From: Deltaproteobacteria bacterium
GTDB taxonomy: Bacteria; Desulfobacterota; GWC2-55-46
DNA: 64,000 nucleotides
Reading direction: 5' to 3'
Assembly: GCA_015075075.1 (NCBI GenBank)
Contig: JABTVA010000002.1
Span: forward strand, 65,985 to 129,984
Made by a program: the position numbers and the translations under genes. This document shows positions 7,968 through 47,166 of this stretch, one piece after another. Position 1 is the stretch's first letter. Every line of letters begins with the position of its first letter. The notes beneath the pieces were generated by a model. It searched no databases and was not told where the DNA came from. It saw nothing but the letters and a program-made list of their open reading frames with translations.

Positions 7968-8102
7968 TAGGCACGAACGAACTCGCGAGCAAGCCGGAAA
8001 AAGACCGGTCCGGCGGGGTCAGTCTGAAATTTAATACAGGGGCGCTGGAGGACCCTGTATGAATATGCCACGGGCCTTGCGCAAAACCCGAGCTGCCGGT
8101 TT

Positions 8103-30492: not shown

Positions 30493-30569
30493 TTGGCGCG
30501 CCCGGAGGGATTCGAACCCCCGACCCTCTGATTCGTAGTCAGATGCTCTGTCCAGCTGAGCCACGGGCG
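30493..30569 (-). tRNA. tRNA-Arg (anticodon ACG), CCA encoded
   Basis: Reverse complement GCGCCCGTGGCTCAGCTGGACAGAGCATCTGACTACGAATCAGAGGGTCGGGGGTTCGAATCCCTCCGGGCGCGCCA folds as a cloverleaf. Anticodon loop is CTACGAA, the T-loop GGTTCGAATCC, and the 3' end is CCA. Confidence 0.9.
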
Positions 30570-30767
30570 CTTATGCTTGCTTTTTCCCGGAAATGCCCTG
30601 AGAGGCCTGAAAGAAAAACTGTTTGCAACCAAAGGCGGGCCCAAAATAACGGCCCGGCCTTGTTCGCCAAAAGATTTTAACATCTGGGGATTTTCAGTCA
30701 AGAGATTAGTAGAGGCGCTCTCAGCGAATAAGAACCCGGGGACCCTGCGGGCAGCCACCGGGCAAGT

Positions 30768-30802
30768 GTCTTTTTATTTTATGCGGAAAAAAATAAAAAG
30801 AC
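30768..30802. repeat. AT-rich 13-bp inverted repeat (GTCTTTTTATTTT / AAAATAAAAAGAC) upstream of tRNA-Arg
   Basis: The sequence shows a perfect palindrome with a 9-nt loop. Function unknown. Confidence 0.5.
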
Positions 30803-31065
30803 AGGGAGCTTCGCTCGCCTGCCTTTCCCTTGAAAGGCGTCCGGGCCTGAGCCCATCCCCAGCCCCGCTCCGGGCCCGGGCGCCTTGTAAGGCATGATAT
30901 AGGATTGGTTTAAACTTACGGGACGAAACACACGCATTATATACTGAGGGCATGGTTCCTGGAACTGTACCCAAGTACAGTCCGCCTCCTCCGCTTATTA
31001 ACCTTTGCAACTCTCTGAATAATCAAATAGAATGGAAAGACGGCTGCGATTTTCAGGAGGCTTGG

Positions 31066-31320
31066 ATGGACTCGATAACATTCCTGGGGCTTCTGGGCGG
31101 GACCCTTACTACCGCCTCATTTTTCCCCCAGGTGGTCAAAACGATAAAGACCCGCTCGACAAAAGACGTTTCGTTCGCGATGTTCCTGCTCCTGTCCATC
31201 GGGATAACCATCTGGATAATATACGGTATCAAGATAGGCTCCATCCCGGTGGTGATAGCGAATTCCGTCTCGCTCGTCTTCTCGCTTATCATCCTGATAC
31301 TCAAGCTGGTATATAAATAG
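31066..31320 (+). CDS. SemiSWEET / PQ-loop (MtN3-like) three-TM sugar transporter
   Basis: 84 aa. AGGAGG RBS 6 nt upstream. Contains the PQ motif (FFPQVVKTIKTRSTKDVS) and three hydrophobic helices. Confidence 0.7.
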   Translation: MDSITFLGLLGGTLTTASFFPQVVKTIKTRSTKDVSFAMFLLLSIGITIWIIYGIKIGSIPVVIANSVSLVFSLIILILKLVYK

Positions 31321-31372
31321 GAGGGCTGCGGAAACCCTTTTCTGCATGGACCCGGGGACAGGGCTTCGTTCT

Positions 31373-31404
31373 ATTTGCCATGCCGGCATTATATGATATA
31401 ATCG
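31373..31404 (+). promoter_or_regulatory. sigma70-type promoter TTGCCA-N16-TATAAT
   Basis: Near-consensus hexamers with correct spacing, about 60 nt upstream of the acpS start. Confidence 0.5.
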
Positions 31405-31464
31405 CGGTCAAACATCCCCCCTCAAACAGTAACATTGCAAGAAGGCAGGCAACGGAGCCGGTCT

Positions 31465-31827
31465 GTGGGCAACTTTTCTTCAGGAATAGACGTGGTTTCC
31501 CTTGAAAGGGCCGAAAGGTCTTTTTCAAACGCCCGTTTCCTTAGCTCGGTTTTTACAGACCGGGAGATCGAACTGGCGTACTCCATGAGGGAGCCGGGAA
31601 GGCACCTGGCCGGCAGGTTCGCTGCCAAGGAGGCCTTTGTAAAGGCCCTCTCAAAAGGCATCCTATCAGGCATAAGGCTTAAGGACATAGAGATCACTGC
31701 AACGCCAGGCGGCCCTCCGGCTTTCAAGCTCGGCAAAAAGCCCGAAGGCCTTGTGGCCGGCAGGAGCGTACACTTAAGCCTTTCATATACAAGTCATTTC
31801 GCATTCGCTCTCGTCGTAATAGGCTGA
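31465..31827 (+). CDS. acpS: holo-[acyl-carrier-protein] synthase (4'-phosphopantetheinyl transferase)
   Basis: GIDVVSLERAE...FLSSVFTDREIE...AKEAFVKAL...SLSYTSHFAFALVVI matches AcpS. The start (GTG at 31465) is uncertain. Confidence 0.7.
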   Translation: MGNFSSGIDVVSLERAERSFSNARFLSSVFTDREIELAYSMREPGRHLAGRFAAKEAFVKALSKGILSGIRLKDIEITATPGGPPAFKLGKKPEGLVAGRSVHLSLSYTSHFAFALVVIG

Positions 31828-32005
31828 GCTGCCCGGCCTTAAACGATGGATTTGGCGCTCAAAATATTTAATAATTCTACTTTTCTTCCGAAATATACGA
31901 TATGCTTGCCGCTCCTTATTTTCCATTTGAAAAATTGTGATATACTGTTTTAGAATGCTCGCAAGAACACGGAACGTTTAAAGCCGTAACCAAACTGGGT
32001 TTCAG

Positions 32006-32673
32006 GTGAATCCGCACCGGAGGATGGAGTTGGCACAGGTAGTAATAGCGATGAGCAATATCCTTCTATCAGAGGGTATTGACACGCTCATAGGGTCTGA
32101 AAAGGAACTCTCCGTTTCCAGGATACTCACGCCGGGGAAGGAATATTCGAACGAGGATCCCAGTCTTTGGGTTCTTCCGTCGTCATAACGGATTTCATGA
32201 CCCTGCATAATGCGTTCCCCGGCCTCGATGAAGCCGTAAAGAAGCCCCCTTTCATTCTCATTGATACGGACTGCGGCAGGGAAAACCTCGTATCAGCGGT
32301 CCTCAGGAAGAAGATAAACGGGGTACTTCTCGGGGATTCGAGTCCTGAGCTCCTTATAAAGGCGATAAAGGCAGTCGCGAAAGGCGACATCTGGCTCGAC
32401 AAGCAGACCTTCAAGAACATACTCCACGGCATTAACGCGCTGGGGAGCGAAAAGAACTCCCTGTCTCCCAGGGAAAAGGAAATCGTACAGCTTACGGGAA
32501 AGGGGCTCAGGAACAAGGAGATAGCCCAGAAGCTCAATATAAGCGAGACGACGGTAAAGACGCACCTTAACAGGATTTTCCAGAAGCTCAACATAAAAGC
32601 CCGTTCCGAGCTCATAAGTTACGCGATAAAGAACCATGCCATGAACAACCACAGCCTGAGAAATACGATATAA
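32006..32673 (+). CDS. LuxR-family response regulator (atypical receiver plus HTH; probable frameshift near 32160-32190)
   Basis: Two overlapping ORFs. The first (MELAQVVIAMSNILLSEGID...) looks like a REC N-terminus. The second has the DTD phospho-acceptor region FILIDTDCG and a C-terminal LuxR HTH (LSPREKEIVQLTGKGLRNKEIAQKLNISETTVKTHLNRIFQKL). Confidence 0.55.
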
Positions 32674-32852
32674 GCCCTCCGATTTTCCTATTCGCCGTAA
32701 CCCCCGATAAAAAAACACTTCTTTAAAGACCTGCCGCATGGGAAACAGCCATTTGCACCCGTTCCTCAACCCCTGTCAATACAACCAAAGTACTACTCCA
32801 GCCTGAAAAGGTTGTACTACCTCTTTCATGATTTTGTATACCTTTGAAGGAT

Positions 32853-32880
32853 TGCCAATTCCCCGGACCGCGACTATCAT
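32853..32880 (+). promoter_or_regulatory. candidate sigma70 promoter TTGCCA-N16-TATCAT upstream of the PilZ/EPS-export operon
   Basis: Hexamers read from the sequence, about 37 nt upstream of the PilZ TTG start. Confidence 0.35.
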
Positions 32881-32916
32881 GGGCCGTCCAAAATAAGTTT
32901 CAGGGGCAAGGGCCTG

Positions 32917-33279
32917 TTGAAAAAATCCAAGGACATCACCAGCACTCGCGTCTGCCCGTCTTGCGGGAAGGCCTTCATCTGGTTCGTCGAGACCCCGCTT
33001 TCATGCCCTTACTGCGGCTATCTGCCTCGCGACCAAAGGGGTGAAATGAGGACCTCCCTGGAGAGGACGTTCGAGCTCAAACTTGGCAAAAAAACCCTCA
33101 CGGCGGACCTCCTTGATTATTCGGCGTCCGGGGTGAGGCTTTCCTGCCCGGAGCGCATAGGCACGGACACGCTCGTGTCCATAGACATAACTGAATTGGG
33201 CATTCACAGGTCCGCAAGGGCCGTCTGGACCATGCCGCTATTGCCGGGGGTGGCGATGGCGGGGTTCAAGTTCATCTGA
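32917..33279 (+). CDS. PilZ-domain c-di-GMP-binding protein with N-terminal C4 zinc ribbon
   Basis: CPSC-x14-CPYC zinc ribbon. PilZ motifs RGEMR (RxxxR) and DYSASG (DxSxxG). TTG start immediately after an in-frame stop. Confidence 0.6.
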   Translation: MKKSKDITSTRVCPSCGKAFIWFVETPLSCPYCGYLPRDQRGEMRTSLERTFELKLGKKTLTADLLDYSASGVRLSCPERIGTDTLVSIDITELGIHRSARAVWTMPLLPGVAMAGFKFI

Positions 33280-33289
33280 GGGGAAATCC

Positions 33290-33874
33290 ATGTTCTCAAG
33301 GCACCTGGTTAAGATGCTCACGTGCGCGCTTTTTGCGCTCTTTCTGGCCGGCGCGCCCGCCAACGCCGCCAATGAGGCGGGCGGGTCCGAATACCTGATA
33401 GGCCCGGAGGACGTGCTCGAAATAGTGGTCTGGAGGAATACCGAATTATCAAGACAGGTCACGGTGAGGCCCGACGGCCGGATAACGCTGCCGCTCATAG
33501 GCGAACTCCCCGCCGCAGGCCTCACGCCCGAGAAGCTCAGGGCGGAGATAGTCGAGCGCCTCAAGGAGTACCAGCAGAGCGCGGTCGTAGCCTCCGTAAT
33601 AGTGCAGAGCGTCAACAGCTACAGGGTGTACGTCCTCGGGCAGGTGCAGGTGCCCGGGAGCTACACCCTTAAGTCCAGGACCACGGTCCTGCAGGCATTG
33701 TCGCTCGCCGGTGGTTTCAGCCAGTTCGCGTCCAAGAACAAGATAGTGCTGATAAGAAAACGGGCCGACGGACTCGATGACAAGATCCAGGTAAAGTTCA
33801 ACGACCTGGTATACGACGAAGAGAGCCGCGCGAACGAGTACCTTTTGCCGGGAGACACGATTTTTGTTCCGTAG
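33290..33874 (+). CDS. polysaccharide export outer-membrane/periplasmic protein (Wza/Poly_export family, PEP-CTERM-locus type)
   Basis: Signal peptide, Poly_export motif (IGPEDVLEIVVW...DGRITLPLIGEL) and an SLBB domain. Confidence 0.8.
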   Translation: MFSRHLVKMLTCALFALFLAGAPANAANEAGGSEYLIGPEDVLEIVVWRNTELSRQVTVRPDGRITLPLIGELPAAGLTPEKLRAEIVERLKEYQQSAVVASVIVQSVNSYRVYVLGQVQVPGSYTLKSRTTVLQALSLAGGFSQFASKNKIVLIRKRADGLDDKIQVKFNDLVYDEESRANEYLLPGDTIFVP

Positions 33875-34994
33875 GATGCTCCTTACCGCTCTTTTATTGT
33901 CGGTCCCGGCCGGGGAGGCATGGGCATGGGTCGCAAGGCCGTCGCTATCGACCGAGTTCCGCTTCGAGAAGAACTCCGGCCCCGCATCGGACGGAAGCGG
34001 CTCAGGGGACGACAGTATTCTGAGGGCGTCTCCCAGGCTCGACCTGGAAAATAGCGGCATGAACATCGGCTTCAACGCCGGGTACGCGTTTACCTGGAAT
34101 CAATACCTCGGCGACCACGACAGGGACTGGACAGCCCATAATGCCGTCGCTGGACTTGACATGAGGATATCACCTTTGACCGAGCTGCAGGCAGGATACG
34201 ACTTCACCTACACGAGGGAGCCGAGGGAGGCGACCACGACGGGCATCGAGGCCTTCCGGGCCGCCGATATCCGCTCGCATAACGCCAATGTAAGCGGCTC
34301 TCGCCTGATAAGTCCCAGGCTCACGGGCAGGCTTTCGCTTTCCGGCGAGGTCCTCGAGTTCGAGGACCCCTCTGCAGTGGACAGCAGGACGCTCTCGGCT
34401 GGCGCGGCCGGAGAGTTCCGCTGGACTGAAAGGACGAGCTTCACCCCGGCTTATGAGTACACGAACCTCGATTACGACTCCGGCCCGTCGACGGAGATAC
34501 AGAGCCATTCGCTTAACGCCGGCTTTTCAACCCGGCACTCGGAGAGCCTTGCCTATAACATTTCCGCGGGCCTGGCCTATTCGACCGGCCTAAGCGACCG
34601 GGTAGACTGGACTGCCGGGGCCGGCCTTTCAAAGTCGTTCCAGCGGGGCTCCGTTTCGGCCTCCTACTCGAGAGGCGTATCGGACAGCTCCGGGCTGGCC
34701 GATGAGCTCAACATAAGCGAGACCGTCACGGCGGGCCTCTCCAGGAACCTGAGCGATTCCGCCTCTTTCTCCTTGACCGCAGGCTATGCCAGGAACAGGA
34801 CAAGACCGGCAGGCGCAGTGGACCTTCGGTCATATTCAGCGGACATGGGCGTAAGGTGGCAACTGCTACGCTGGGCGACAATCGGCGCCGGCATAAGCCA
34901 CTTTAACCAGCTCTCCTACGGGACTACCGGCTCTGACGTGGAGAGGAACGCCTTTTACCTCAACCTGACACTGCAGAGCGAATACAGGCCCTAA
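33864..34994 (+). CDS. predicted outer-membrane beta-barrel protein, EPS-locus associated
   Basis: Signal peptide, alternating amphipathic strands rich in Gly/Ser/Tyr, and an aromatic C-terminus. Confidence 0.5.
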   Translation: MFRRMLLTALLLSVPAGEAWAWVARPSLSTEFRFEKNSGPASDGSGSGDDSILRASPRLDLENSGMNIGFNAGYAFTWNQYLGDHDRDWTAHNAVAGLDMRISPLTELQAGYDFTYTREPREATTTGIEAFRAADIRSHNANVSGSRLISPRLTGRLSLSGEVLEFEDPSAVDSRTLSAGAAGEFRWTERTSFTPAYEYTNLDYDSGPSTEIQSHSLNAGFSTRHSESLAYNISAGLAYSTGLSDRVDWTAGAGLSKSFQRGSVSASYSRGVSDSSGLADELNISETVTAGLSRNLSDSASFSLTAGYARNRTRPAGAVDLRSYSADMGVRWQLLRWATIGAGISHFNQLSYGTTGSDVERNAFYLNLTLQSEYRP

Positions 34995-34995
34995 A

Positions 34996-36504
34996 ATGGA
35001 AAACTTCAACATCATATCTTTTCTTGAGGCGGCATACAGGCGCAAGTGGCTCGTCATCGCGCCTGCCGCGCTGGGCACCGCCGTAGCCGCCGTAGTGGCC
35101 TGGCTCATGCCCTCGTATTACCTCTCTGCGACGCTGATACTCGTCGAGCAGCAGCAGGTGCCTGCGTCCTACGTGACCCCTACGGATGTCACTCCCTTCA
35201 ACCAGCGCCTCAATACCATCCGCCAGCAGATACTCAGCAGGCCGAACCTCGAGCGCATCATAAGCGAGTTCAACCTCCACCAGACGAGCGGCGGCCTCCT
35301 TGAGCGGGCGGCTTCAAAGGCGGGTATCGACATGAGCAGGCCGCTAAGCCGCGAGAGCGCCCTTAACCGGCTTGTATCGAGCATCGAGATACGGCTCGTG
35401 GGAGAGAGGAGGGCGGAGGACGCGTTCAGCATAAGCTACTCGGGCACCGACCCCTACACGACCATGCAGGTCACGAGCGCCCTCGCGTCGATGTTCATAA
35501 ACGAGAACCTTAAGCGGAGAGAAATGTACGCAGAGGGGACCTCGGAGTTCCTGTCGGACGAGCTGGCGCGGGCCAAGAGCGAGCTCGAGACCCAGGAGCG
35601 CGCGGTGAGGGACTTCAAGGAAAGATACATGGGAGGGCTCCCTGAGCAGCTTGACGCGAACCTCCGGACGCTCGACAGGCTTCAGCTGGACCTCCAGGCG
35701 GTGCGGCTCGAGATAAAAAGCGCGGAGGACAGGAAGGTCCAGCTCGAAACCCAGCTTAGTTCGGCCGTGGGCGCAGTATCAGGCACCCAGGTCAACCCAC
35801 TGGTGGTGGAGATGGAGAGCCTGCAAAGGGAGCTTACGCAGCTCCTTTCGCAGTATAACGAGAACTACCCTGACGTGATCATCATAAGGAACCGGCTCAA
35901 GGAGCTCGGGAGCCTCCTTGCTTCGAACAGGACCGGGGCTGCCGAAGCCCAGGCCGTGGCACTCCCCGGGCCTGAGATACGGAACCCCGAGGCCTATAAC
36001 AACCTCGTCTCGGTCGAATCGCAGCTGCGCTCCCTGAGGACAAGGGAGCGCGAACTGAACGAGAACATCCGCGCCCTTGAGAAGCGGGTCGAGGAGACCC
36101 CTGCCAATGAGCAGCGGTACACGGACCTTAACAGGAATTACCAGATATCCTTCGCCAACTACCAGAACCTCCTTGAAAAGAGCCTGAACGCGCGCCTTGC
36201 CGAGAACCTCGAGAAGAGGCAAAAAGGCGAAAGGTTCAGGATAATCGACCCGGCAAACCTGCCGGAGGGGCCGTACAAGCCGAAACGAAGCCTCATCGCG
36301 CTGGCCGGCACGGTCATCGGGGCCGGTCTCGGGTTTGGCATCATATTCCTCCTTGAGTTCACGAGCCCGGCGTTCAGGAAACCGGAGGAGTTCGAGGGCC
36401 TCCTGGACTTCCAGGTCATTGCCTCGATCCCGGCTTTTGAGCCGGACCCGCATGCGAAAAAGGGCAGGTTCGGTAGGATACGCGGAGGGAGCGGAGATAG
36501 ATGA
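34996..36504 (+). CDS. polysaccharide chain-length determinant protein (Wzz/GumC-like, PEP-CTERM-locus type)
   Basis: 502 aa. N-terminal TM helix, long periplasmic coiled-coil region and a C-terminal TM helix (LIALAGTVIGAGLGFGIIFLLEF). Confidence 0.8.
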   Translation: MENFNIISFLEAAYRRKWLVIAPAALGTAVAAVVAWLMPSYYLSATLILVEQQQVPASYVTPTDVTPFNQRLNTIRQQILSRPNLERIISEFNLHQTSGGLLERAASKAGIDMSRPLSRESALNRLVSSIEIRLVGERRAEDAFSISYSGTDPYTTMQVTSALASMFINENLKRREMYAEGTSEFLSDELARAKSELETQERAVRDFKERYMGGLPEQLDANLRTLDRLQLDLQAVRLEIKSAEDRKVQLETQLSSAVGAVSGTQVNPLVVEMESLQRELTQLLSQYNENYPDVIIIRNRLKELGSLLASNRTGAAEAQAVALPGPEIRNPEAYNNLVSVESQLRSLRTRERELNENIRALEKRVEETPANEQRYTDLNRNYQISFANYQNLLEKSLNARLAENLEKRQKGERFRIIDPANLPEGPYKPKRSLIALAGTVIGAGLGFGIIFLLEFTSPAFRKPEEFEGLLDFQVIASIPAFEPDPHAKKGRFGRIRGGSGDR

Positions 36505-37983
36505 GCTTTCTTTCGAGATTCCTCGGCAAGAATAAAAAGGCCGAGCCCGAAAAAGCCCCGCCTTCCGGCCGTCTTTCCATAGTCGGGAAAAGGTCCCGGC
36601 CCCTTTCCCGCATATGGACGGTCGGCGGGGGCAAGGGCGGGGTGGGCAAAAGCGTCGTCGCCGCGAACTTCGCGACACTCCTTGCCGGCTCCGGACGTAG
36701 GACGCTCATCGTTGACGCGGACTTCGGCGCGGCCAACCTGCATACCCTTTTCGGGATACAGGGCTCCAACCCGTCCCTTTCGAGCTTTCTTAAGTCGGAG
36801 GTCGCGGATATCAGGAGGCTCATAACCGGGACAGGAATCCAGAAACTCGATATAATTACCGGTGCGATGGACTCGCTCAATATCGCGGACGTGGACGCAT
36901 CGTCGCTTATGCGCCTGCAGCGGGCCATCTCGGAGCTCGACTACGACCATGTCGTCCTCGACCTCTCGCCCGGCACATCATCCGACGTGCTCGACTGCTT
37001 TTTGATGTCCGACGAAGGGATACTCGTGACCACACCTGAGCCCACCTCGATAGAGAACACCTACAGGTTCATGAAGTGCCTGTTCCTCCGGAGGATACGG
37101 GCGATCATAAACTCCGGCGAGCCGGGGCGCCTGAAGGAGACGCTCAAGGCGGCCCTGGAGCGCGACCCGAGGATAGGGACCGTCTCGGAGTTCATGAAGA
37201 ACTTCAAGCTCAGCGCCGGAAGCGGATCGGCCCCTGAGGAGATCCTGGGAGGCATGGGGGGCCACCTCGTCGTAAACAGGACCAGGCTCCCGGAGGACCG
37301 CGCAATCGGGCCGCATATGCAGCGTGCCTGCATGAGCTACTTCGGCGTGCGCTTCAACCACCTCGGAGACATCGGCCAGGACACCTCCATAGAAGATTCC
37401 GTCCGGGCGAGAAGGCCTCTCGTCAGGGACTATCCGGGGAGCCCCGCCGCGCTCTCGCTCGTCTCCTGTTTCAGGAAGCTCTCATCCATCGAGGCGGGAA
37501 AAGGCCGGCAGGAGGCCGATAAAGGGGCTTATGCAGATATGAACCAGCGAGTGAACATCGACTATTACGAGCTCTTGGATATCGCCCGGGGCGGCTCCCT
37601 CCGAGGTGGAAGAGGCTTACAGGAAGGCAATATCCGACCTGGGCGGCGACTCCGTGGCCATCTACTCGCTCTACACCCCGGAGGAGAAGGAAGAGCTTAT
37701 CTCCCGGCTTAACGAGGCATACGAGGTCTTGAGCGACCCTGAGAGGAGGGCCGCGTATGACGCCAGGGCCGCCAGCAGGCTGGAGCCAGCCGTAACGCGC
37801 GATTCGAGCTGGGCGACCTGGGCCCCAGCGGTCGACGCCCGCCACTTTAAAAGGTGCGGAAGACCACGGGCTTCGCCAGGCGCCGGTCTCCGCCTCCGGC
37901 GAAAACTCCATCATAACGGAACAGTACCGGATCCTGTATTCAAGGATACACTGGATAGCCGAGGAGGCAGCTCAAGGTCATAG
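36501..37983 (+). CDS. MinD/ParA-family P-loop ATPase with C-terminal degenerate J-like domain (frameshift near 37590; C-terminal boundary uncertain)
   Basis: Deviant Walker A GGGKGGVGKS and the IVDADFGAANL motif. The C-terminus reads IDYYELLDIARG then, in a shifted frame, EVEEAYRKAISDLGGDSVAIYSLYTPEEKEELISRLNEAYEVLSDPERRAAYD. This is J-domain-like but lacks HPD. Sequence after about 37800 is probably not part of the protein. Confidence 0.55.
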
Positions 37984-38516
37984 CCGTGACCAGCGCCGTA
38001 AAGGGAGAGGGCAAATCGGTCACCTCGCTCAACCTGGCGTACGTCACGGCATGCGAGTTCAAGAAAGGGTGCTCCTTGTAGAGTGCGATTTGCGGAAACC
38101 TCTACCCTTCGAGGATGATGAAGAACGCGAGGAAGAGTGCGGCCTCGCGGAGGTACTCGAGCAGGGGCGGACATACGGGACGCCATCTGCCGCGTGGACG
38201 GGACAAGCCCATCTCTCTTACCTCCGGCACGTGCACGAGGAGCTCATCCGAGCTCATAGACTCGCCGTATCTCAAGTCCATACTCAAGGGGTTCAGGGAC
38301 GAATTCGACTATGTATTCGTGGACACCCCGCCGATACTGCCCCTGGCTGACATGAACATCATATCGAGGATTGTGGACGGGACGATACTGGTAGTGAGGG
38401 CCGGGGCCACCCCGAAGAAGGTGGTCCTGAAGGCGGCCCAATCCCTTTCAGAGGGGCGTTTCATAGGCATAGTGCTTAACGGGGCCGATACCGCGCTGGC
38501 CAGCTACTATTATTAG
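37850..38516 (+). CDS. BY-kinase (CpsD/Wzc-type protein-tyrosine autokinase), fragmented by several frameshifts; boundaries approximate
   Basis: Pieces in three frames: SIITEQYRILYSRIHWIAEEAAQ, KVIAVTSAVKGEGKSVTSLNLA (Walker A), RVLLVECDLRKP (Walker A'), GLAEVLEQG..ADIRDAICRVDG, ISLTSGTCTRSSSELIDSPYLKSIL, FDYVFVDTPP (Walker B), and the Tyr cluster ASYYY at the C-terminus. Confidence 0.65.
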
Positions 38517-38524
38517 GGGGACAC

Positions 38525-39913
38525 ATGCTCTTCAACAGGCACCCTTCCAAGCGACTGCTGTACATAGCCCTCATCGAGGGCCTTCTCATATTCCTTGCCG
38601 CGCTCGTGTCGGTTGCGATACGCCTCTCTTTCGAAGGCGGCGCAATGGTCAAATACGACCCCAGCTATCTCAAGAGCCTGGTGCTGACCGCGACTTACCT
38701 CGTCACCTTCTACTACTTCGACCTCTACACGCCCGACATGTACAGGCCGAGCCGCTATATGTTCTCAAGGCTCATAAAAGGCATGATAGTGGCGGCCATA
38801 ATACAGTTCAGCATCTTCTACATCATCCCGTCCCTCAAGATATGGCGGGGCATACTGCTCATCAACATGCTCATAATGCCCTCGGCCATCATATTCTTCA
38901 GGCTCGTATTCTCCAAGATACTGAAGATAAAGCTCCCCGGGAAGCGCGTCCTCATCATCGGCGCCGGCGACCTCGCGAAAAGGATCGGGAGCGAGATATA
39001 CACCAAGCCCGAGCACGGCCTCAATCTCGTGGGCTTCATCGACGACGACCCGACCAAATACGGGGTATCCATCGTAAACCCGGGCGTCATCGGCGGGTAC
39101 GGCGACATCTCGAGGCTCGCGGACGAGCAGAATATCGACCTCATAATAGTCGCTCTCCCGGACAGGAGGGCCAAGCTCCCCATGTCGGCACTCCTCGACT
39201 GCAAGCTCAAGGGCATATCAGTCGAGGAAAGCGAGACCTTCAAGGAGCGGCTCACCGGCAAGATACCTCTCGACCACCTGAAACCGAGCTGGATGGTCTT
39301 CTCTGACGGCTTCAGGTCGCTCAGGTCCAGGAAGTTCGTAAAGAGGTCCCTCGACATCGTCTTCGCGGCCCTCTGGCTCGTGGTGGCTGCGCCGGTAATG
39401 CTCCTTACCTCGATGATAATCAAGCTCGAATCAAAGGGGCCTGTCATATTCAAGCAGGTCAGGGTTGGAGAGCACGGCAAGGAGTTCAACATCTACAAAT
39501 TCCGCTCGATGCGCCAGGACGCGGAGGCCAAGACCGGGCCGGTGTGGGCGGTGGCCAACGACGACAGGGTCACCCTGGTGGGGCGCATAATAAGGAAGCT
39601 CCGCATAGACGAACTCCCGCAGCTCGTAAACGTCCTTAAGGGAGATATGAGCTTCGTCGGCCCGAGGCCCGAGCGCCCGTATTTCGTCAACAAGCTCAGG
39701 GAGGAGATCCCGTACTACAATATCAGGACGGTGGTGAAGCCGGGCCTGACCGGGTGGGCGCAGATAAAATATCCATACGGCGCGAACATGGAGGACGCGG
39801 TCGAGAAGCTCCAGTATGAGATATTTTATATCAAGAACATGTCCCCTCTCCTCGACTTCATGATAATGTTCTGGACCATAAAAGTCGTGCTCACCGGCAA
39901 GGGGGCGAGATAG
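38525..39913 (+). CDS. exopolysaccharide polyprenyl glycosylphosphotransferase (WbaP/EpsB-type priming sugar transferase)
   Basis: 462 aa. Four or five N-terminal TM helices. C-terminal bacterial sugar transferase domain (KFRSM...DELPQLVNVLKGDMSFVGPRPERP). Confidence 0.85.
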   Translation: MLFNRHPSKRLLYIALIEGLLIFLAALVSVAIRLSFEGGAMVKYDPSYLKSLVLTATYLVTFYYFDLYTPDMYRPSRYMFSRLIKGMIVAAIIQFSIFYIIPSLKIWRGILLINMLIMPSAIIFFRLVFSKILKIKLPGKRVLIIGAGDLAKRIGSEIYTKPEHGLNLVGFIDDDPTKYGVSIVNPGVIGGYGDISRLADEQNIDLIIVALPDRRAKLPMSALLDCKLKGISVEESETFKERLTGKIPLDHLKPSWMVFSDGFRSLRSRKFVKRSLDIVFAALWLVVAAPVMLLTSMIIKLESKGPVIFKQVRVGEHGKEFNIYKFRSMRQDAEAKTGPVWAVANDDRVTLVGRIIRKLRIDELPQLVNVLKGDMSFVGPRPERPYFVNKLREEIPYYNIRTVVKPGLTGWAQIKYPYGANMEDAVEKLQYEIFYIKNMSPLLDFMIMFWTIKVVLTGKGAR

Positions 39914-39958
39914 GGCTACGGAACCTCCTCCTTTCTGCCGATATGGAAAGATAGAAAA

Positions 39959-40447
39959 ATGATGAACTGGTACGCCATATACACGAAATCAGGCTGCGAG
40001 GAGAGAGTGTCCTCCCGGCTTAACGGAGCCGGCTTCAGCGTCCTGAACCCGCTCCTGAAGGAGAGGAGACTCTACCGGAGGAAGCTCCAGGAGGTGGTCT
40101 CGCCGCTTTTCCCCTGCTACATATTCGCCGAGCTCAATATGCCTGCCCATTACCGCCTCATAAGGTACACGCGGGGGGTAAGGCAGATAGTCGGCAACGA
40201 GGCCGCACCCCTGCCTGTACCGGATGCCGTCATAGGCTCGATACTTGGCAGGATGGAAAACGGCCTGGTCGCGGTAAGGCGCGACGAGTTCAGCCCCGGC
40301 GAGAGCGTGGCCATAAAGGGCGGGGCCTTCGAGGGTTTCGAGGCCCTGTTCGAGCGGGAGATGAGCGGCTCCGAGAAGGTGAGCATACTCCTCAAGGCCC
40401 TGAACGCCCGGATAATACTGGACAGGGCCCTTCTGGCAAGGCTTTAA
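39959..40447 (+). CDS. rfaH: RfaH-type NusG paralog (operon-specific transcription antiterminator)
   Basis: NGN domain WYAIYTKSGCEERV...PLFPCYIFAE and a KOW-like C-terminus (GAFEGFEALFE...ILLKALN). Aligns with E. coli RfaH along its full length. Confidence 0.75.
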   Translation: MMNWYAIYTKSGCEERVSSRLNGAGFSVLNPLLKERRLYRRKLQEVVSPLFPCYIFAELNMPAHYRLIRYTRGVRQIVGNEAAPLPVPDAVIGSILGRMENGLVAVRRDEFSPGESVAIKGGAFEGFEALFEREMSGSEKVSILLKALNARIILDRALLARL

Positions 40448-40463
40448 ATGCGTGGAGCACCAG

Positions 40464-40488
40464 GGCAGCGTAACCGAGCTGCCTTTTT
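40464..40488 (+). terminator. intrinsic terminator after rfaH (GGCAGC-gtaaccga-GCTGCC TTTTT)
   Basis: 6-bp stem followed by T5, 17 nt after the rfaH stop. Confidence 0.45.
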
Positions 40489-40499
40489 GAAGAAGCACC

Positions 40500-40529
40500 T
40501 TGTACTGCCATTCGGAAATAGCCTATTTA
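40500..40529 (+). promoter_or_regulatory. candidate promoter TTGTAC-N18-TATTTA for the downstream long operon
   Basis: Weak hexamer matches. Would place the TSS about 25 nt upstream of the ops-like element. Confidence 0.25.
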
Positions 40530-40561
40530 ACGGGTGCAAAAAATCCTAAGTGCACCTGAAC

Positions 40562-40573
40562 GGCGGTAGCCTG
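40562..40573 (+). promoter_or_regulatory. ops-like RfaH recruitment element GGCGGTAGCCTG (consensus GGCGGTAGnnTG) in the leader of the asnB-like operon
   Basis: Matches the 8-bp core plus TG on the non-template strand. Lies 14 nt upstream of the first ATG of a roughly 24 kb co-directional operon and right after a rfaH-like gene. Confidence 0.65.
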
Positions 40574-40586
40574 CCCGGAATCTGAC

Positions 40587-42563
40587 ATGTGCGGAATAGC
40601 TGGAATAACCGGAGGGGACCTGGCTGTCTGCCAGGAGGCCTTGAAGTCGATGCTCTCGATGCTCCGCCACCGGGGACCGGACGACTTCGGCCTCTACAAC
40701 GACGGACGCGCGGCCCTGGGGCACACGAGGCTCAGCATAATAGACCTCGCGGGCGGGCGCCAGCCCATGTCCAACGAGGACGGGAGCGTCTGGATAACCT
40801 TCAACGGCGAGATATTCAACTACATAGAACTCAAGGACGAACTGTCAAGAAAGGGGCACCGCTTTTCAACAAACTCCGATACCGAGGTAATTGTCCACCT
40901 CTATGAGGAACTCGGAGACGGGTGCGTTACGCGCCTTAACGGCCAGTTCGCCTTCGCGATATGGGACAAAAACCGCTCCGAGCTTTTTATCGCGCGCGAC
41001 AGGCTCGGGATACGGCCACTTTTTTACTCTTCGCACGCGGGCCGCTTCTATTTCCCCACCGAGATAAAGGCGCTCTTCGCCGGGGGGCCTCTCCCGAGGG
41101 AGATAGACCCGGCCGCGCTTGACGAGATATTCACCCTGTGGTGCAGCGTGCCGCCGAGGACCGCCTTCAAGGGAATAAACGAGCTTCCTCCCGCGCACTG
41201 GATGAAAATAAGGGACGGGGCAGTCTCGTCGGTCAAGCGCTACTGGGACGTGCCGCTCGGCGAAGAGCCCCTCGATATAAGCATCGAAGAGGCGGCGGAC
41301 GGGCTTTTTGATATCCTTTCGGATGCGACGCGCCTGCAGCTGCGGGCCGACGTGCCGGTCGGGGCCTACTTGAGCGGCGGGCTCGACTCCTCCATAACCG
41401 CCGCGCTGATAACTAAGATAACCGGAGCCGGCCCGCATACCTTTTCCGTGGCGTTCGAGGACGGGGCATACGACGAAAGCGGGTTCCAGCACGAGATGGC
41501 CCGCCACCTCGGGACCGAGCACCACGAGGTACGGTGTTCGTACTCCGACATAAGCGGGGTATTCCCGGAGGTCGTCTGGTACGCCGAGAAGCCGGTCCTA
41601 CGGACCGCGCCCGCCCCGCTCTTCATCCTCTCGCGCCTTGTGAGGGAGACCGGGCTCAAGGTGGTCCTTACGGGCGAGGGCGCGGACGAGGCGGCCGGCG
41701 GCTACGATATTTTCAAGGAGGCGAAGATACGGGAGTTCTGGGCGCGCGAGCCGGAATCCAGGCTCCGTCCCCTGCTACTTAAGAAACTTTATCCATACCT
41801 GAGCGCGTTCCAGGGCCAGTCCGACGCGTACAGGGAGGCCTTCTTTAACGGCGGCCTCTCCGACGTCTCAGACCCCCTCTTCTCCCACCGTCCAAGGTGG
41901 CAGACCACTTCAAGGCTCAAGGCCTTTTTCTCGAAGGACCTCCTGGCCGAAAACACTTCCGGCCCGGAGGAGCGGCTTAAGTCGCTTATGCCCCGGGGGT
42001 TCGGAGGCTGGAGGGCGCTCGCCAGGGCGCAGTACATAGAAACGGCGGGTCTCCTGCCGGGCTACATACTCTCTTCCCAGGGCGACAGGGTGCTCATGGG
42101 TAACTCGGTGGAAGGGCGGTACCCTTTCCTCGACCACAGGGTCGTCGAGTACTGCGCCCGCTTGCCGCTTCGGCATAAGATGCGCGGCCTCGACGAAAAG
42201 CACGTGCTCAAGCGGATGGCGCGCGGCATGCTGCCCGCCTCGATCCTCAAAAGGACAAAGCAGCCCTATCTGGCGCCTGACAGCAAGAGCTTTTTTGCCG
42301 GCGGCAAGGCGCCCGATTACGTGGAGGAGCTTCTCTCCGAGGGGTCGCTCAAGGACTACGGCTACTTCGATCCCGGGTCCGTGGGGCTCCTCGTCAAGAA
42401 ATGCCGGAGGGGCGCAGCGAGCGGCTTCAGGGACAACATGGCCCTTGTAGGCATACTCTCAACGCAGCTACTGCATAACATGTTCATAGCCGGGTTCGAG
42501 GGCAGGGCCGCGAGAGGGCGCGATGCGGCGGGCCTCCGGGCGCCGGCTACCGCGGCTTCATAA
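40587..42563 (+). CDS. asparagine synthetase (glutamine-hydrolysing)-family amidotransferase, exosortase-A-locus type
   Basis: N-terminal MCGIAG Ntn glutaminase domain and a PP-loop SGGLDSS. Confidence 0.85.
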   Translation: MCGIAGITGGDLAVCQEALKSMLSMLRHRGPDDFGLYNDGRAALGHTRLSIIDLAGGRQPMSNEDGSVWITFNGEIFNYIELKDELSRKGHRFSTNSDTEVIVHLYEELGDGCVTRLNGQFAFAIWDKNRSELFIARDRLGIRPLFYSSHAGRFYFPTEIKALFAGGPLPREIDPAALDEIFTLWCSVPPRTAFKGINELPPAHWMKIRDGAVSSVKRYWDVPLGEEPLDISIEEAADGLFDILSDATRLQLRADVPVGAYLSGGLDSSITAALITKITGAGPHTFSVAFEDGAYDESGFQHEMARHLGTEHHEVRCSYSDISGVFPEVVWYAEKPVLRTAPAPLFILSRLVRETGLKVVLTGEGADEAAGGYDIFKEAKIREFWAREPESRLRPLLLKKLYPYLSAFQGQSDAYREAFFNGGLSDVSDPLFSHRPRWQTTSRLKAFFSKDLLAENTSGPEERLKSLMPRGFGGWRALARAQYIETAGLLPGYILSSQGDRVLMGNSVEGRYPFLDHRVVEYCARLPLRHKMRGLDEKHVLKRMARGMLPASILKRTKQPYLAPDSKSFFAGGKAPDYVEELLSEGSLKDYGYFDPGSVGLLVKKCRRGAASGFRDNMALVGILSTQLLHNMFIAGFEGRAARGRDAAGLRAPATAAS

Positions 42564-42588
42564 GCAATTTCAAGGAGGGATTCAGCAA

Positions 42589-42849
42589 ATGCATGATAAG
42601 ATAAGAGAGTTCATCTTCGAGAACTTCCTTTTCAATGCCGAGGGGAGCGCGCTCGACAACGACGCCTCGTTCCTCGAGACCGGCATAATAGACTCGACCG
42701 GCATGCTCGAGCTCGTGAACTGGATACAGGAGACCTACGGCTTCGAGGTCGACGATACCGAGCTCGTCCCGGAGAACCTCGACAGCGTAAACCGGCTCGC
42801 CATATACATAGACAGGAAGACGCAGGCAGCGACCCGGGTATCCGGATAA
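42589..42849 (+). CDS. acyl carrier protein
   Basis: AGGAGG RBS. Phosphopantetheine attachment motif GIIDSTGMLELV. Confidence 0.75.
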   Translation: MHDKIREFIFENFLFNAEGSALDNDASFLETGIIDSTGMLELVNWIQETYGFEVDDTELVPENLDSVNRLAIYIDRKTQAATRVSG

Positions 42850-42945
42850 GCCCTTAGAGGATATGCCTCCACTCGCCGGCAGGAAGACGGGTGAAGGGTC
42901 GCTCCTCCAGCTGGGAGCCAGGTAAAACCAAACTGACTTTATAGA

Positions 42946-44523
42946 ATGCTCGTACACGACTATCTCATACGCTCGGCCGAACGCTTCCCCGAGAAGACCG
43001 CCCTGGTCCACGGCGGCAGGCGGACCTCGTACTCCGAGCTCCTTTCGCTGGCCTCGTCCGTCTCATCATGGCTGAGGCACGCGGGCGTGGAAAAGGGCGA
43101 CCGGGTCGCGATACTGAACGACGACCCGAGGGAATACATAAGCTCCTATTTCGGCATACTCATGGCCGGCGGGATAGTCGTCGCGCTTAATACCGACACT
43201 TCGGCCAGGACCCTCGGCGCGCAGATAAGCGGGTGCGGCGTTTCCGCAGCCATAACCCAGGCGAAGTTCATGGGCTACTTGAGGGACCTCGGAAAGGGAG
43301 TCACTTCGCTTAAGTCGGTCGCGGCATCCGGGCTCAAGCCCTCGGACGCCGGGGACGAGGGATATGCCCTCTCTGACCTCAAGGACGCCTTCGTATTTCC
43401 GCCCGGCACCCCGGCCCGATCAGCGCGAGCGGACCTCGCGCAGGTCATCTATACGTCCGGCACGACCGGCGGCTCGAGCGCGGTGACGCTCAGGCATTCC
43501 AACCTCGCGGCCAACACGGCTTCGATAATCGAGTACCTAAAGCTCGGAGAGGGCGACAGCGTAATGGCGGTGCTGCCTTTTTTCTATTCCTACGGCAACT
43601 CGGTCATGCTTACCCATATCGCGGCGGGCGGCAGGCTCGTCGTAAACCAGAATTTCCTGTATCCGAACCTCATACTCGACCAGATGGCCGCCGAGGAGGT
43701 GACGGGCTTCTCCGGCGTGCCTTCGACCTATGCGATACTCCTCAACCGCTCCGCCCTCAGGCGCTACAAGTTCCCGGCCTTGAGGTACATGACACAGGCT
43801 GGCGGGGCAATGCCGCCCAGGCTCGCGCGCGAGATGAAGTCCGTATTCCCGGATGTGGACTTCTACGTAATGTACGGCCAGACAGAGGCCTCGGCCAGGC
43901 TCTCCTATCTTGAGCCCCATGAGCTCCTTAGGAAGGCGGGCTCGGTCGGGAAGGCCATACCCGGCGTCCTGCTTGAGGTGCTCGACGAAGGCGGCGGGCC
44001 GGTCGGGCCGGGCGAGACCGGCGAAATAGTCGCGAGCGGCGAGAACATCATGGCCGGGTACTGGAGAGAGCCCGAGAAGACCGCGAGGGTGCTTAAAAAC
44101 GGGAAACTCTGGACGGGCGACCTCGCCAGGGTCGACGAGGAGGGGTTCATCTACATAGTCAGCCGGAAAAGCGATATCATTAAATGCGGCTCCCACAGGA
44201 TCCACCCGGCTGAAATAGAGGAGGTTCTGGCCGAGCATGCCGCCGTCCACGAGTCCGCTGTAATAGGCGTGGAGGACGAGATACTCGGCGAGGCGCTGAA
44301 GGCCCTTGTAGTATTGAAGACCGGATACCAGTGCTCCCGGAACGAGCTCCTGCAGCACTTGAAGGCGCTGCTTCCGTCGTACAAGGTCCCGCAGCACATC
44401 GATTTCATCCCGGAGCTCCCGAAGACATCGAGCGGCAAGATAAAACGAGCGCTTCTAAAGACCCCTTCCGCGCCGGGGTCGCCTGGGTCAATCGGCCAGC
44501 GAAGCCAAAAGGAGGCCGGATGA
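42946..44523 (+). CDS. acyl-CoA ligase (AMP-forming), exosortase-A-locus type
   Basis: AMP-binding motifs YTSGTTGGSS and GYWREPEKTA plus the adenylation core. Confidence 0.85.
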   Translation: MLVHDYLIRSAERFPEKTALVHGGRRTSYSELLSLASSVSSWLRHAGVEKGDRVAILNDDPREYISSYFGILMAGGIVVALNTDTSARTLGAQISGCGVSAAITQAKFMGYLRDLGKGVTSLKSVAASGLKPSDAGDEGYALSDLKDAFVFPPGTPARSARADLAQVIYTSGTTGGSSAVTLRHSNLAANTASIIEYLKLGEGDSVMAVLPFFYSYGNSVMLTHIAAGGRLVVNQNFLYPNLILDQMAAEEVTGFSGVPSTYAILLNRSALRRYKFPALRYMTQAGGAMPPRLAREMKSVFPDVDFYVMYGQTEASARLSYLEPHELLRKAGSVGKAIPGVLLEVLDEGGGPVGPGETGEIVASGENIMAGYWREPEKTARVLKNGKLWTGDLARVDEEGFIYIVSRKSDIIKCGSHRIHPAEIEEVLAEHAAVHESAVIGVEDEILGEALKALVVLKTGYQCSRNELLQHLKALLPSYKVPQHIDFIPELPKTSSGKIKRALLKTPSAPGSPGSIGQRSQKEAG

Positions 44524-45606: not shown

Positions 45607-47166
45607 ATGACCGTTATGACCATTGACAGATTCCTCCATGATAGCGCCCGGACGCACCCGGACAGGGAGGCCCTCGTGACAAAGGAGGGCCGCTTCACCT
45701 ACGGACGTCTCGGCGCGATGGCAGCCGCCTTCTCTTCAGCCCTGGTCTCCGGGGGCCTTAAGAAGGGCGACCGCGTATGCATCCTCCTGGAAAACTCGGC
45801 GGAGCTCGTGGCGGCGGTTTTCGGGGTGCTCAGGGCAGGAGGGGCTTTCGTGCTCCTTAATCCCACGACCAAGGCGCGCAAATGCGGGTACATTTTTAAC
45901 GACTGCCGGGCCTCCGCGCTTGTGACTACCTATGAAAAGGCCCAGCTCATAGCTGAAGCCGCGGCATCGGCGCCCTCGCTCAAAAGCATATGGCTTTCCG
46001 GGCAGGCAACAGAGCTGCCTTCCTCCATATCGGGAATAAGCGCGAGCCTACGCGAGGCGTTCATGCCCATGAGCGCCCCGGGGCCGTCGAGCGGGCCCGA
46101 GGCAACGGACCTCGCTTCCATCATATACACCTCGGGTTCGACCGGCGCGCCCAAAGGGGTCACAATGGCCCATTCGAACATGGCTGCCGCAGCGGACTCA
46201 ATCATCAGCTACCTCGGCATTACCCGTGACGACGTCATCCTCAACACCCTGCCCATGTCCTTCGATTACGGCCTTTACCAGGTCCTCATGGGCTTCAGGG
46301 CCGGGGCCAGGGTCGTCCTCGAGAAGTTCCTTTACTCCTGGGACATACTGAAGACCATAGAAAAGGAGCGGGTTACCGGGTTCCCGGTCGTGCCGACCAT
46401 ATCCTCCATACTCCTAAAGACCGAGGACTTCAAGGGCTTGAGCTTTGACGGGCTGAGATACATCACCAACACCGGAGCGGCCCTCCCTGTCCAGCACATA
46501 AAAAGGCTTCGCGAGATATTCCCGAAGACGAAGATATTCTCGATGTACGGCCTTACGGAATGCAAGAGGGTGTCTTATCTTCCGCCTGAAGAGCTCGACA
46601 GGCGCCCGACGTCCGTCGGGAAGCCGATGCCGAACACCGAGGCATACGTGGTCGATTCCGACGGGAAGCGGGTGGGACCCGGAGTAACCGGCGAGCTCGT
46701 GGTAAAGGGGCCCAACGTGATGGCAGGGTACTGGGGTTTGCCCGAGGAGACGGCGAAAGCGCTCCGGCCCGACGCCGGCGGCGAAACGGTCCTTTATACA
46801 GGCGACCTTTTCAGGACCGACGAGGACGGCTTTCTCTATTTCGTGGGCCGGAAGGACGAGATCCTGAAATGCCGGGGCGAGAAGGTGAGCCCCAGGGAGG
46901 TGGAAGAGGTCATCCACGGGCATGAAGGGGTGGCCCAGGCCGCGGTCGCGGGGGTCCCTGACGCGGTCCTCGGGACTGCGCTCAAGGCCTTCGTGGTCCC
47001 CAAAAAGGGCTTCGAGCTTACGCAGAGGGAGCTCATGCAGCACTGTTCAAGGCACCTCGAGGACTTTATGGTCCCGAAGTACATCGTATTCATGGAGGAC
47101 CTGCCTAAAAACGAAAACGGGAAGGTGGACAGGCCGCTCCTTGCCGAAGGCGGGGCCGCAAGGTGA
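45607..47166 (+). CDS. second acyl-CoA ligase (AMP-forming) paralog
   Basis: Motifs YTSGSTGAPKG and GYWGLPEETAKAL. A 9-bp tandem duplication (ACCGTTATG x2) spans the start codon. Confidence 0.85.
   Translation: MTVMTIDRFLHDSARTHPDREALVTKEGRFTYGRLGAMAAAFSSALVSGGLKKGDRVCILLENSAELVAAVFGVLRAGGAFVLLNPTTKARKCGYIFNDCRASALVTTYEKAQLIAEAAASAPSLKSIWLSGQATELPSSISGISASLREAFMPMSAPGPSSGPEATDLASIIYTSGSTGAPKGVTMAHSNMAAAADSIISYLGITRDDVILNTLPMSFDYGLYQVLMGFRAGARVVLEKFLYSWDILKTIEKERVTGFPVVPTISSILLKTEDFKGLSFDGLRYITNTGAALPVQHIKRLREIFPKTKIFSMYGLTECKRVSYLPPEELDRRPTSVGKPMPNTEAYVVDSDGKRVGPGVTGELVVKGPNVMAGYWGLPEETAKALRPDAGGETVLYTGDLFRTDEDGFLYFVGRKDEILKCRGEKVSPREVEEVIHGHEGVAQAAVAGVPDAVLGTALKAFVVPKKGFELTQRELMQHCSRHLEDFMVPKYIVFMEDLPKNENGKVDRPLLAEGGAAR

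Follow-up and report, generated by a model that had tools for sequence, protein, structure and literature searches.

The DNA analysed here is a stretch of 64,000 nucleotides, referred to throughout as the window, from contig JABTVA010000002.1 (positions 65,985 to 129,984) of the Deltaproteobacteria bacterium assembly GCA_015075075.1. It contains a polysaccharide-export gene cluster in which a MinD-like ATPase is encoded between a chain-length co-polymerase and a cytoplasmic bacterial tyrosine kinase (BY-kinase). As written in the window, the ATPase appears to continue into a J-like domain, a relative of the J-domain of DnaJ from which the His-Pro-Asp (HPD) tripeptide is missing. Here we report that ATPase and J-like domain belong to two separate proteins, that the domain is the N-terminal part of the kinase, and that it probably acts as a partner module coupling the kinase to the neighbouring ATPase. 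BY-kinases control the length of capsule and exopolysaccharide, and a MinD-like ATPase inherited with such a kinase, and tracked by one of its domains, would add a concrete and testable regulatory layer for the cytoplasmic members of this group. The features on which the argument turns are the following:

34996-36504, plus strand: polysaccharide co-polymerase of the Wzz/GNVR type, 502 residues (TIGR03007, 257.8 bits, below the cut-off of 278.85).
36501-37542, plus strand: FlhG/FleN/MinD-like deviant-Walker-A ATPase, true length 346 residues (family hidden Markov model (HMM), 446.6 bits; orthologues; AlphaFold2 (AF2) model).
36501-36539, plus strand: N-terminal motif of the ATPase, MSFLSRFLGKNKK, a putative amphipathic membrane- or partner-binding helix (from motif conservation).
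36624-36653, plus strand: Walker A motif of the ATPase, GGGKGGVGKS, with signature Lys45 and catalytic Lys50 (direct reading).
37493-38216, no strand: defective-sequence patch specific to the window (alignment to contigs L002, L003 and L004, introduced below).
37539-38516, plus strand: J-like-domain BY-kinase gene, encoding 328 residues where intact (orthologue P0121); the start codon at 37539-37541 shares the sequence ATGA with the stop codon of the ATPase, and a tblastn alignment spans 37539-38513.
37560-37761, plus strand: HPD-less J-like domain, kinase residues 8-75 (PF00226; AF2 model; family J-like HMM, 94.0 bits).
37642-37677, plus strand: loop between helices II and III, GGDSVAIYSLYT, with GGD at the HPD position and then A.YSL(Y/F); the residues YSLY lie at 37663-37674.
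37983-38018, plus strand: Walker A motif of the BY-kinase, AVTSAVKGEGKS (direct reading).
38316-38513, plus strand: BY-kinase from Walker B (FVDTPP) to the C-terminal tyrosine cluster (SYYY, 38502-38513) (direct reading).

The open reading frame (ORF) that begins at 36501 runs to 37712 in the window (403 residues in the ORF list), starting as a MinD/ParA-like P-loop protein and continuing without a stop into NIDYYELLDIARGGSLRGG; the +1 frame holds another ORF, at 37606-37983, that reads EEAYRKAISDLGGDSVAIYSLYTPEEKEELISRLNEAYEVLSDPERRAAYD. The J-like peptides IDYYELLDIA (37560-37586) and EVEEAYRKA...RRAAYD (37603-37761) are both present, in different frames. An earlier note, made from the letters of this stretch, had joined these pieces into one protein ending at 37983, with the J-like domain as the tail of the ATPase, and had rightly placed that ATPase, from 36501, between the chain-length determinant (34996-36504, TIGR03007) and the BY-kinase. 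Comparison with other contigs separates what had been joined. L002, L003 and L004 come from three other samples and separate sequencing runs and are near-identical to the window outside the patch (L002 is 99.6% identical to window positions 33538-42516), and L001 shares 92% DNA identity with positions 30511-43525; in all four, the ATPase and the J-like kinase are adjacent genes with an ATGA overlap. The ATPase gene of L001 occupies 6001-7041 and the next gene (7038-8024) encodes a 328-residue protein carrying PF00226 and PF13614, in which the BY-kinase comes after the J-like domain; the J-like kinase gene of L002 (4001-4987) carries the same two domains. The two genes are likewise separate in loci L085, L086 and L088. 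The closest ATPase orthologues (P0001-P0003; 95, 83 and 80% identity) are 346 residues long and end in GLMQI, ELSQI and GLQQT, before the J-like sequence, and a DnaJ domain is absent from the best 120 ATPase homologues listed (311-371 residues, covering 55-75% of the repaired protein). The fusion is an artefact. Two distinct proteins are encoded here, and the J-like segment is part of the kinase specified by the next gene, an outcome that the earlier note itself had named as refuting its reading; the last 75 residues of the protein drawn to 37983 are an out-of-frame reading.

The source of the error is a patch of 724 bp (37493-38216) within which the window departs from L002, L003 and L004 by 16 indel events (20 alignment columns) and 12 substitutions, many of the indels being one-base length changes at short single-base runs. 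Outside the patch, ~8.2 kb of overlap with L002 holds four substitutions and no indel, and divergence from the L002-type contigs falls from ~3.9% within the patch to ~0.05% elsewhere. The patch starts 16 codons ahead of the ATPase stop and ends 300 bp ahead of the kinase stop, and over those last 300 bp of the kinase gene the window is identical to L002. Because indels at 37493, 37506 and 37521 add up to a net +1 shift that hides the ATPase stop (TGA, 37540-37542), the window ORF runs on to 37712. A 2-base deletion at 37587 then splits the J-like domain across two frames, and further indels leave the kinase gene in at least four reading-frame pieces, the disruption spanning 37587-38216. A frameshift had been suspected near 37590, and the frame does break there, but as part of a patch found in the window only.

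It is very improbable that the window is right and that the organism makes a true fusion of ATPase and J-like domain. The ORF does pass without interruption from the ATPase into IDYYELLDIA, and natural fusions of ATPase, J-like and helix-turn-helix domains exist in a sister module described below. However, even as written the 403-residue ORF drops out of the J-like frame once helix I is passed, such that a second repair is needed, and the reading so repaired enters out-of-frame sequence and would leave the kinase headless; the contigs from three other samples, the 120 ATPase homologues free of a J-like domain, and the crowding of 16 indels into 724 bp when the remaining 8.2 kb of overlap with L002 has none all speak against it. 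Real biology of another kind, in which the kinase gene, along with the last part of the ATPase gene, is a decaying pseudogene or has been overwritten by recombination with a degraded copy, would fit a kinase gene that cannot be read in the window, 8 of 12 substitutions that are nonsynonymous (including L227P, at a position at least 90% conserved among kinase family members) and related lineages that have lost the ATPase or the J-like domain. This too is unlikely, given the abrupt step in divergence, patch limits that follow no gene, starting within the ATPase and stopping short of a kinase end that is identical to L002, and one-base indels in short runs of the sort typical of read error or unpolished gap fill. 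A local defect of sequence quality is a highly probable origin for the patch, and whichever origin it has, the fusion is no feature of this gene family. Programmed frameshifting was ruled out as the cause by the presence of 16 scattered indels rather than one site, and a diversity-generating mechanism was ruled out by changes that are indels at base runs, with no targeted substitutions. The sharp bounds of the patch suggest a local assembly or polishing defect, and similar patches are possible elsewhere in the source assembly; in practice, domain fusions that span frameshifts need checking against near-identical contigs.

Once the two window frames were joined by removal of one G, Pfam model PF00226 matched the repaired J-like sequence at all 63 model positions, with 35.0 bits in the full protein and 40.7 bits for the segment alone (E = 2.5e-10) against a gathering cut-off of 27.8. 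The identification of a J-domain relative with GGD in place of HPD is confirmed, the match lying far beyond chance. By BLASTP against the J-domain of E. coli DnaJ identity was 35%, with G36-G37-D38 aligned to H33-P34-D35 and followed by a 5-residue insertion. The AF2 model places helices at residues 9-12, 21-36, 48-66 and 68-79, making a four-helix J domain of the first 79 residues in which the loop between helices II and III is longer. Across 103 aligned members this loop shows no variation at Y43, S44 and L45 and at least 90% conservation at S39, A41 and Y46, and HPD occurs in the first 110 residues of none of the best 120 kinase homologues listed; where the kinase-borne domain has lost HPD, it has acquired a conserved 'DS.A.YSL' loop (hereafter the YSL loop). 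It retains the four-helix fold and helix residues (YY.LL, AYR, EAY..L.D...R..YD) of DnaJ, CbpA, DjlA and HscB, but whereas canonical J-domains carry HPD and have Hsp70 as their partner, here there is a variable 'xxD', a 5-residue insertion with the invariant Y-S-L and a MinD-like ATPase as genomic partner. HPD is needed for stimulation of the Hsp70 ATPase, and J-like proteins without it are known, such as mitochondrial Pam16/Tim16.

The kinase to which this domain is attached is in other respects a typical member of its class. Its L001 orthologue scores 131.4 bits with TIGR01007 (cut-off 108.05) and bears the motifs TSAVKGEGKS, ECDLRKP, FVDTPP and YYY, which the window retains within its frame-disrupted gene; it falls below the cut-off for the XrtA-associated tyrosine autokinase TIGR03018 (136.8 against 230.65). 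In the 103 aligned members the J-like domain is N-terminal to the kinase; S154, G160 and K161 of Walker A are invariant and T153, K157, G158 and E159 at least 90% conserved, as are Y326-Y328 of the tyrosine cluster, and D265 and P268 are again invariant. Since the Walker residues are mostly invariant and the others at least 90% conserved, the kinase family is taken to be catalytically competent. It comprises more than 110 clusters of 303-361 residues and 36-92% identity, nearly all with PF00226 and PF13614. The AF2 kinase core superposes on CapB, BceF, VpsO, Etk and Wzc (E ~1e-14 to 1e-13), and its alignment to Wzc begins at about residue 503. The co-polymerase, which is 100% identical to its L002 orthologue, supplies the part that precedes: its last 103 residues align to Wzc 404-477, taking in the second transmembrane helix and 'PEQLEE-IGINVYASIP', and it keeps the juxtamembrane segment PEEFEGLLDFQVIASIP (residues ~410-485) that in fused Wzc leads into the kinase domain. 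Because the co-polymerase covers Wzc 404-477 and the kinase aligns from ~503, the two together correspond to a split Wzc, and the ATPase gene and the J-like domain are inserted exactly at the split point.

The ATPase itself retains the Walker residues of the deviant-Walker-A class. The motif GGGKGGVGKS had been read correctly, and K45, G46, G47, G49, K50, the Walker A' residues D72 and D74, and D154 of Walker B are invariant among 91 homologues; as all Walker residues are invariant, the family is considered catalytically competent. The AF2 model (predicted local distance difference test score (pLDDT) 88.1, predicted template-modelling score (pTM) 0.86) found its best PDB folds by Foldseek in FlhG (4rz2/4rz3), FleN (5j1j) and MinD (1hyq), with target-normalised TM-scores of 0.80-0.88 and E of 1e-16 to 1e-15. 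These closest solved folds share with it the deviant Walker A with its signature lysine and the A' and B aspartates. Relative to FleN there is an extra helical insertion of ~65 residues at ~195-260 and a long C-terminal helix, which is charged and spans residues 315-345 in the model. The protein lies below the curated cut-offs for MinD (TIGR01969, 83.3 against 201.75; TIGR01968, 61.2 against 212.9), matching those models over residues 37-194 only, and where FlhG, FleN and MinD have MinE/MinC or FlhF/FleQ as neighbours, here the neighbouring gene encodes a J-like domain. A likeness to BcsQ, whose type of ATPase organises the secretion of cellulose, had been proposed for this protein. BcsQ is indeed another MinD/ParA-family ATPase within a polysaccharide secretion locus, but membership does not hold (PF06564, 14.7 against 21.3; TIGR03371, 30.5 against 157.85), the fold comparison places the BcsRQ structure 6yb5 far off, at rank 48, and the partners of BcsQ are BcsR and BcsE rather than a J-like domain; an organising role like that of BcsQ could still apply.

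At the N-terminus of the ATPase, MSFLSRFLGKNKK looks like the membrane-targeting sequence found at the C-terminus of E. coli MinD (KKGFLKRLFGG), although the candidate motif here is N-terminal. A hydrophobic and basic motif of this type, with two hydrophobic pairs within the first 12 residues, occurs in 95 of the 113 full-length polysaccharide-linked ATPases; it is not visible in the ATPases adjoining J-like genes with an HTH_25 domain (see below), and AF2 confidence there is low (pLDDT ~44). From its conservation one might guess at a membrane-targeting element.

Within BY-kinase loci the presence of the ATPase and the state of the J-like domain go together. In the window the ATPase gene (36501-37542) lies immediately upstream, on the same strand, of the J-like gene that starts at 37539, and in all five of the YSL-loop kinase lineages checked (L001, L002, L085, L086 and L088) an ATPase gene of 444-480 bits with the family HMM stands between the Wzz and kinase genes. 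Conversely, L087, L089 and L090 have a J-like domain without the YSL loop, L091 and L092 have one that is truncated or gone, and in all five the Wzz gene adjoins the kinase gene and there is no ATPase. These five loci represent three separate clades of the kinase-domain tree, one of them nested within YSL-bearing clades. Their kinases lie at 6001-6912 in L087, 6001-6999 in L089, 979-1977 in L090, 5001-5852 in L091 and 2135-2941 in L092; the corresponding proteins P0218, P0165 and P0216 lack YSL, P0231 keeps a remnant of helix IV and P0239 has no J-like domain. The series looks like a stepwise decay of the J-like domain after loss of its partner. The kinase domains of P0199 and P0216 are nearly identical, and of the two only P0199 has YSL. 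Furthermore, for 36 of the 120 listed ATPases the longest contig is of exactly the same size as that of one of the 120 listed J-like kinases, and no kinase lacking the loop or the domain is among these matches of contig size. As a negative control, 80 loci of ordinary BY-kinases (27-39% identity, among the matches listed) were taken from a scan of genome contigs with the J-like kinase alignment, in which the patterns fell in the kinase core; none has the family ATPase (best score 59 bits, from cross-hits to the kinase) or a J-like domain. The view that this combination is not a standard component of polysaccharide export accordingly stands.

The association extends well beyond kinases. A profile of the J-like domain searched against 1.84 billion representative sequences returned 1620 proteins at E <= 1e-10. 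The best 150 of these include 140 newly returned proteins, of which 129 have the loop motif and lack HPD; they are mostly 80-460 residues long, with the domain at residues 1-76 and without a kinase motif, and a MinD-type Walker A was found in none of the 140. A C-terminal HTH_25 domain of the RodZ type was present in 8 of 10 J-like proteins tested and an SH3 domain in one, and most of the best-scoring profile matches examined carry the J-like domain on kinase, HTH_25 or SH3 scaffolds. In locus L093 (3674-6668), where the J-like domain is joined to HTH_25, a 345-residue ATPase is encoded directly upstream and aligns over its full length to the window ATPase, insertion included, with 30% identity and 163 bits. 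A metagenome scan with the J-like and HTH_25 alignment A5 gave 31 loci: wherever a YSL-type hit (at least 58 bits) was accompanied by enough upstream DNA, a family ATPase (189-337 bits) was found immediately upstream on the same strand (21/21), and loci with a generic J-domain only (26-37 bits, 4 kb of upstream DNA) had none (0/5). The metagenome loci with J-like and HTH_25 domains are L095-L115. Homology search also recovered two single-chain proteins, P0387 (678 residues) and P0388 (517 residues), in the order ATPase, J-like domain, HTH_25; as this is also the order of the genes, they are possible, if rare, Rosetta-stone fusions of the sister module.

Because ATPase and J-like domain occur together and are lost together, whatever the output domain, and are joined in natural fusions, the HPD-less J-like domain is best read as a partner module that couples the kinase to the ATPase, and not as a co-chaperone of DnaK. 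On comparisons of sequence and gene order we would give this reading a probability of roughly 0.6. Several observations weigh against it. The counts on the kinase side are small (five loci against five) and the losses reduce to three clades; gene adjacency is functional linkage and no demonstration of direct contact through the J-like domain; P0387 and P0388 could be artefacts of gene calling or frameshifts; AF2 confidence at the YSL loop is moderate only (66-73); the hydrophobic moment of the N-terminal motif of the ATPase is an unremarkable 0.39, leaving its role a guess; and the kinase copy in the window is untranslatable as written, such that, if the sequence is right, this strain is without a working kinase.

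Two other roles for the domain have to be set against that of ATPase partner. In the first, which the earlier note had entertained, the domain recruits DnaK or another Hsp70 to the kinase or the export machinery, and the ATPase is independent of it, for example as a BcsQ-like positioning factor. A true J-domain homologue is what such recruitment would call for, B. subtilis PtkA phosphorylates DnaK at Tyr601 (PMC4835898), and the fold match to BcsRQ, however distant, lends something to the positioning role. We nevertheless consider it improbable: HPD is missing from the best 120 kinase homologues listed and from 129 of the 140 newly returned best profile matches, the loop that replaces it is strongly conserved and is lost along with the ATPase, and the domain tracks that ATPase, keeping the same neighbour across output domains; for the positioning factor, the BcsQ family scores count against it. 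In the second, the domain serves regulation or oligomerisation within the kinase itself, with Tyr43 and Tyr46, say, as phospho-acceptors, and the ATPase is linked in some other way. Two conserved tyrosines in an exposed loop of a tyrosine kinase are suggestive, and BY-kinases are regulated by autophosphorylation and ring assembly, as in structures of Wzc. But hundreds of kinase-less proteins (HTH_25, SH3 and short forms) conserve the same loop and still adjoin the ATPase, and for that reason the YSL loop is not primarily a target of the kinase itself; this role is about as improbable as the first, though phosphorylation could be an added layer in the kinase subfamily.

With the J-like domain as partner of the ATPase, one mechanism can be sketched by analogy, although the specific way in which the ATPase would gate the kinase is speculative and any one version doubtful. 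An ATP-bound dimer of the ATPase would be held at the membrane through its N-terminal amphipathic motif and would bind the J-like domain; by holding or releasing the kinase it would decide the place and the time of the kinase's encounter with the activating co-polymerase tail. The YSL loop might in turn stimulate ATP hydrolysis, as J-domains do with Hsp70 or MinE with MinD. Control of the kinase by the ATPase would thereby gate polymer length and export, much as MinD and SalA act on PtkA in Bacillus subtilis. There, MinD and SalA, ATPases of the MinD/Mrp family, bind and activate the BY-kinase PtkA in competition with TkmA, and MinD also localises it (PMC4205851, PMC5035731). This interplay, in which an ATPase binds a BY-kinase, modulates its autophosphorylation and determines its localisation, is the nearest functional precedent and the only experimental one found (PMC4205851, PMC5035731). 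MinD and SalA of B. subtilis are, however, housekeeping proteins encoded elsewhere, and no J-like domain takes part there, whereas here the ATPase is a dedicated, co-inherited neighbour tracked by a domain of the kinase. If the proposal is true, control of polysaccharide chain length at this locus depends on a MinD-like spatial or temporal switch.

Set beside established systems, the locus is familiar in its outline and unusual in its additions. CapA/CapB of S. aureus and TkmA/PtkA of B. subtilis likewise pair a membrane co-polymerase or modulator bearing an activating juxtamembrane tail with a separate cytoplasmic P-loop kinase that has the three Walker motifs (A, A' and B) and a cluster of tyrosines at its C-terminus; the likeness to CapB, Etk and Wzc in kinase core, and to Wzc in the tail of the Wzz-like protein, has been given above. 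Unlike either pair, the present system has an extra N-terminal HPD-less J-like domain on the kinase, a gene for a MinD-like ATPase in between and an XrtW exosortase locus around it. With ParB, MinE, McdB and PomX it shares a two-gene logic in which a deviant-Walker-A ATPase is matched with a partner connecting it with a cargo or output, the output here being a BY-kinase, HTH_25 or SH3 domain. The partners of ParA and MinD usually act through short, often basic, N-terminal peptides, whereas the conserved element here is a folded J-like domain; if it is truly a partner of a ParA/MinD ATPase, both the pairing and this use of a J fold beyond Hsp70 systems would be new.

The ATPase/J-like kinase pair is a conserved variant of the split BY-kinase system for which no description was found, and it points to a wider ATPase/J-like module. 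Literature on the pairing, or on a name or function for the J-like and HTH_25 pair, was not found, many subscription journals lying outside the coverage of the search; the papers of relevance were those that connect PtkA with MinD, SalA and DnaK. Neither protein passes any curated NCBIfam model except that for the generic BY-kinase domain, and database names for the two are generic ('polysaccharide biosynthesis tyrosine autokinase', 'P-loop NTPase', 'MinD/ParA family protein'). More tentatively, and at a little under even odds, the YSL J-like domain may be an unrecognised dedicated partner or regulator of a distinct family of MinD/FlhG-like ATPases, a second ATPase pairing of the J fold beside that with Hsp70, in a module reused for BY-kinase, RodZ-type HTH_25 or SH3 outputs.

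Around the three genes at the centre of this account lies a broader polysaccharide cluster that includes an export protein, an outer-membrane barrel, a TIGR03013 priming transferase, an RfaH-like factor, an asparagine-synthase-like amidotransferase, two acyl-CoA ligases, a TIGR03006 deacetylase, an XrtW exosortase and a FemAB-like protein. Two of its members are the gene that follows the kinase and the exosortase, which defines the type of polysaccharide and protein-sorting locus:

38525-39913, plus strand: priming polyprenyl glycosylphosphotransferase (TIGR03013, 485.8 bits, cut-off 393.35).
47989-49524, plus strand: exosortase XrtW with a C-terminal fused EpsI domain (NF038142, 521.7 bits, cut-off 425).

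The priming transferase is the next neighbour in L001, L002, L085 and L087-L092, and in L086 a NusG-like gene intervenes. The earlier note had spoken of XrtA loci for comparison; the exosortase of this cluster is instead XrtW, as the score with NF038142 indicates, and lies below the cut-off of the XrtA model TIGR03109 (184.9 against 208). Among models associated with XrtA/PEP-CTERM systems, TIGR03013, TIGR03006 and TIGR03019 are above cut-off in the XrtW neighbours, and TIGR03007, TIGR03027 and TIGR03108 below. A paralogue of the RfaH/NusG family at 39959-40447 (TIGR01955, 95.6 bits, below cut-off) occupies the same place in L001, L002, L087, L089, L090 and L091 and may be an operon-specific antiterminator. 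Finally, the paralogous acyl-CoA ligases at 42946-44523 and 45607-47166 score 361 and 496 bits with the exosortase-A-associated model TIGR03098, below its cut-off of 592, and in L001 the first of them is directly preceded by a gene for a small PP-binding carrier protein; ligases and carrier together suggest a branch of the polysaccharide pathway devoted to acyl or aminoacyl modification.

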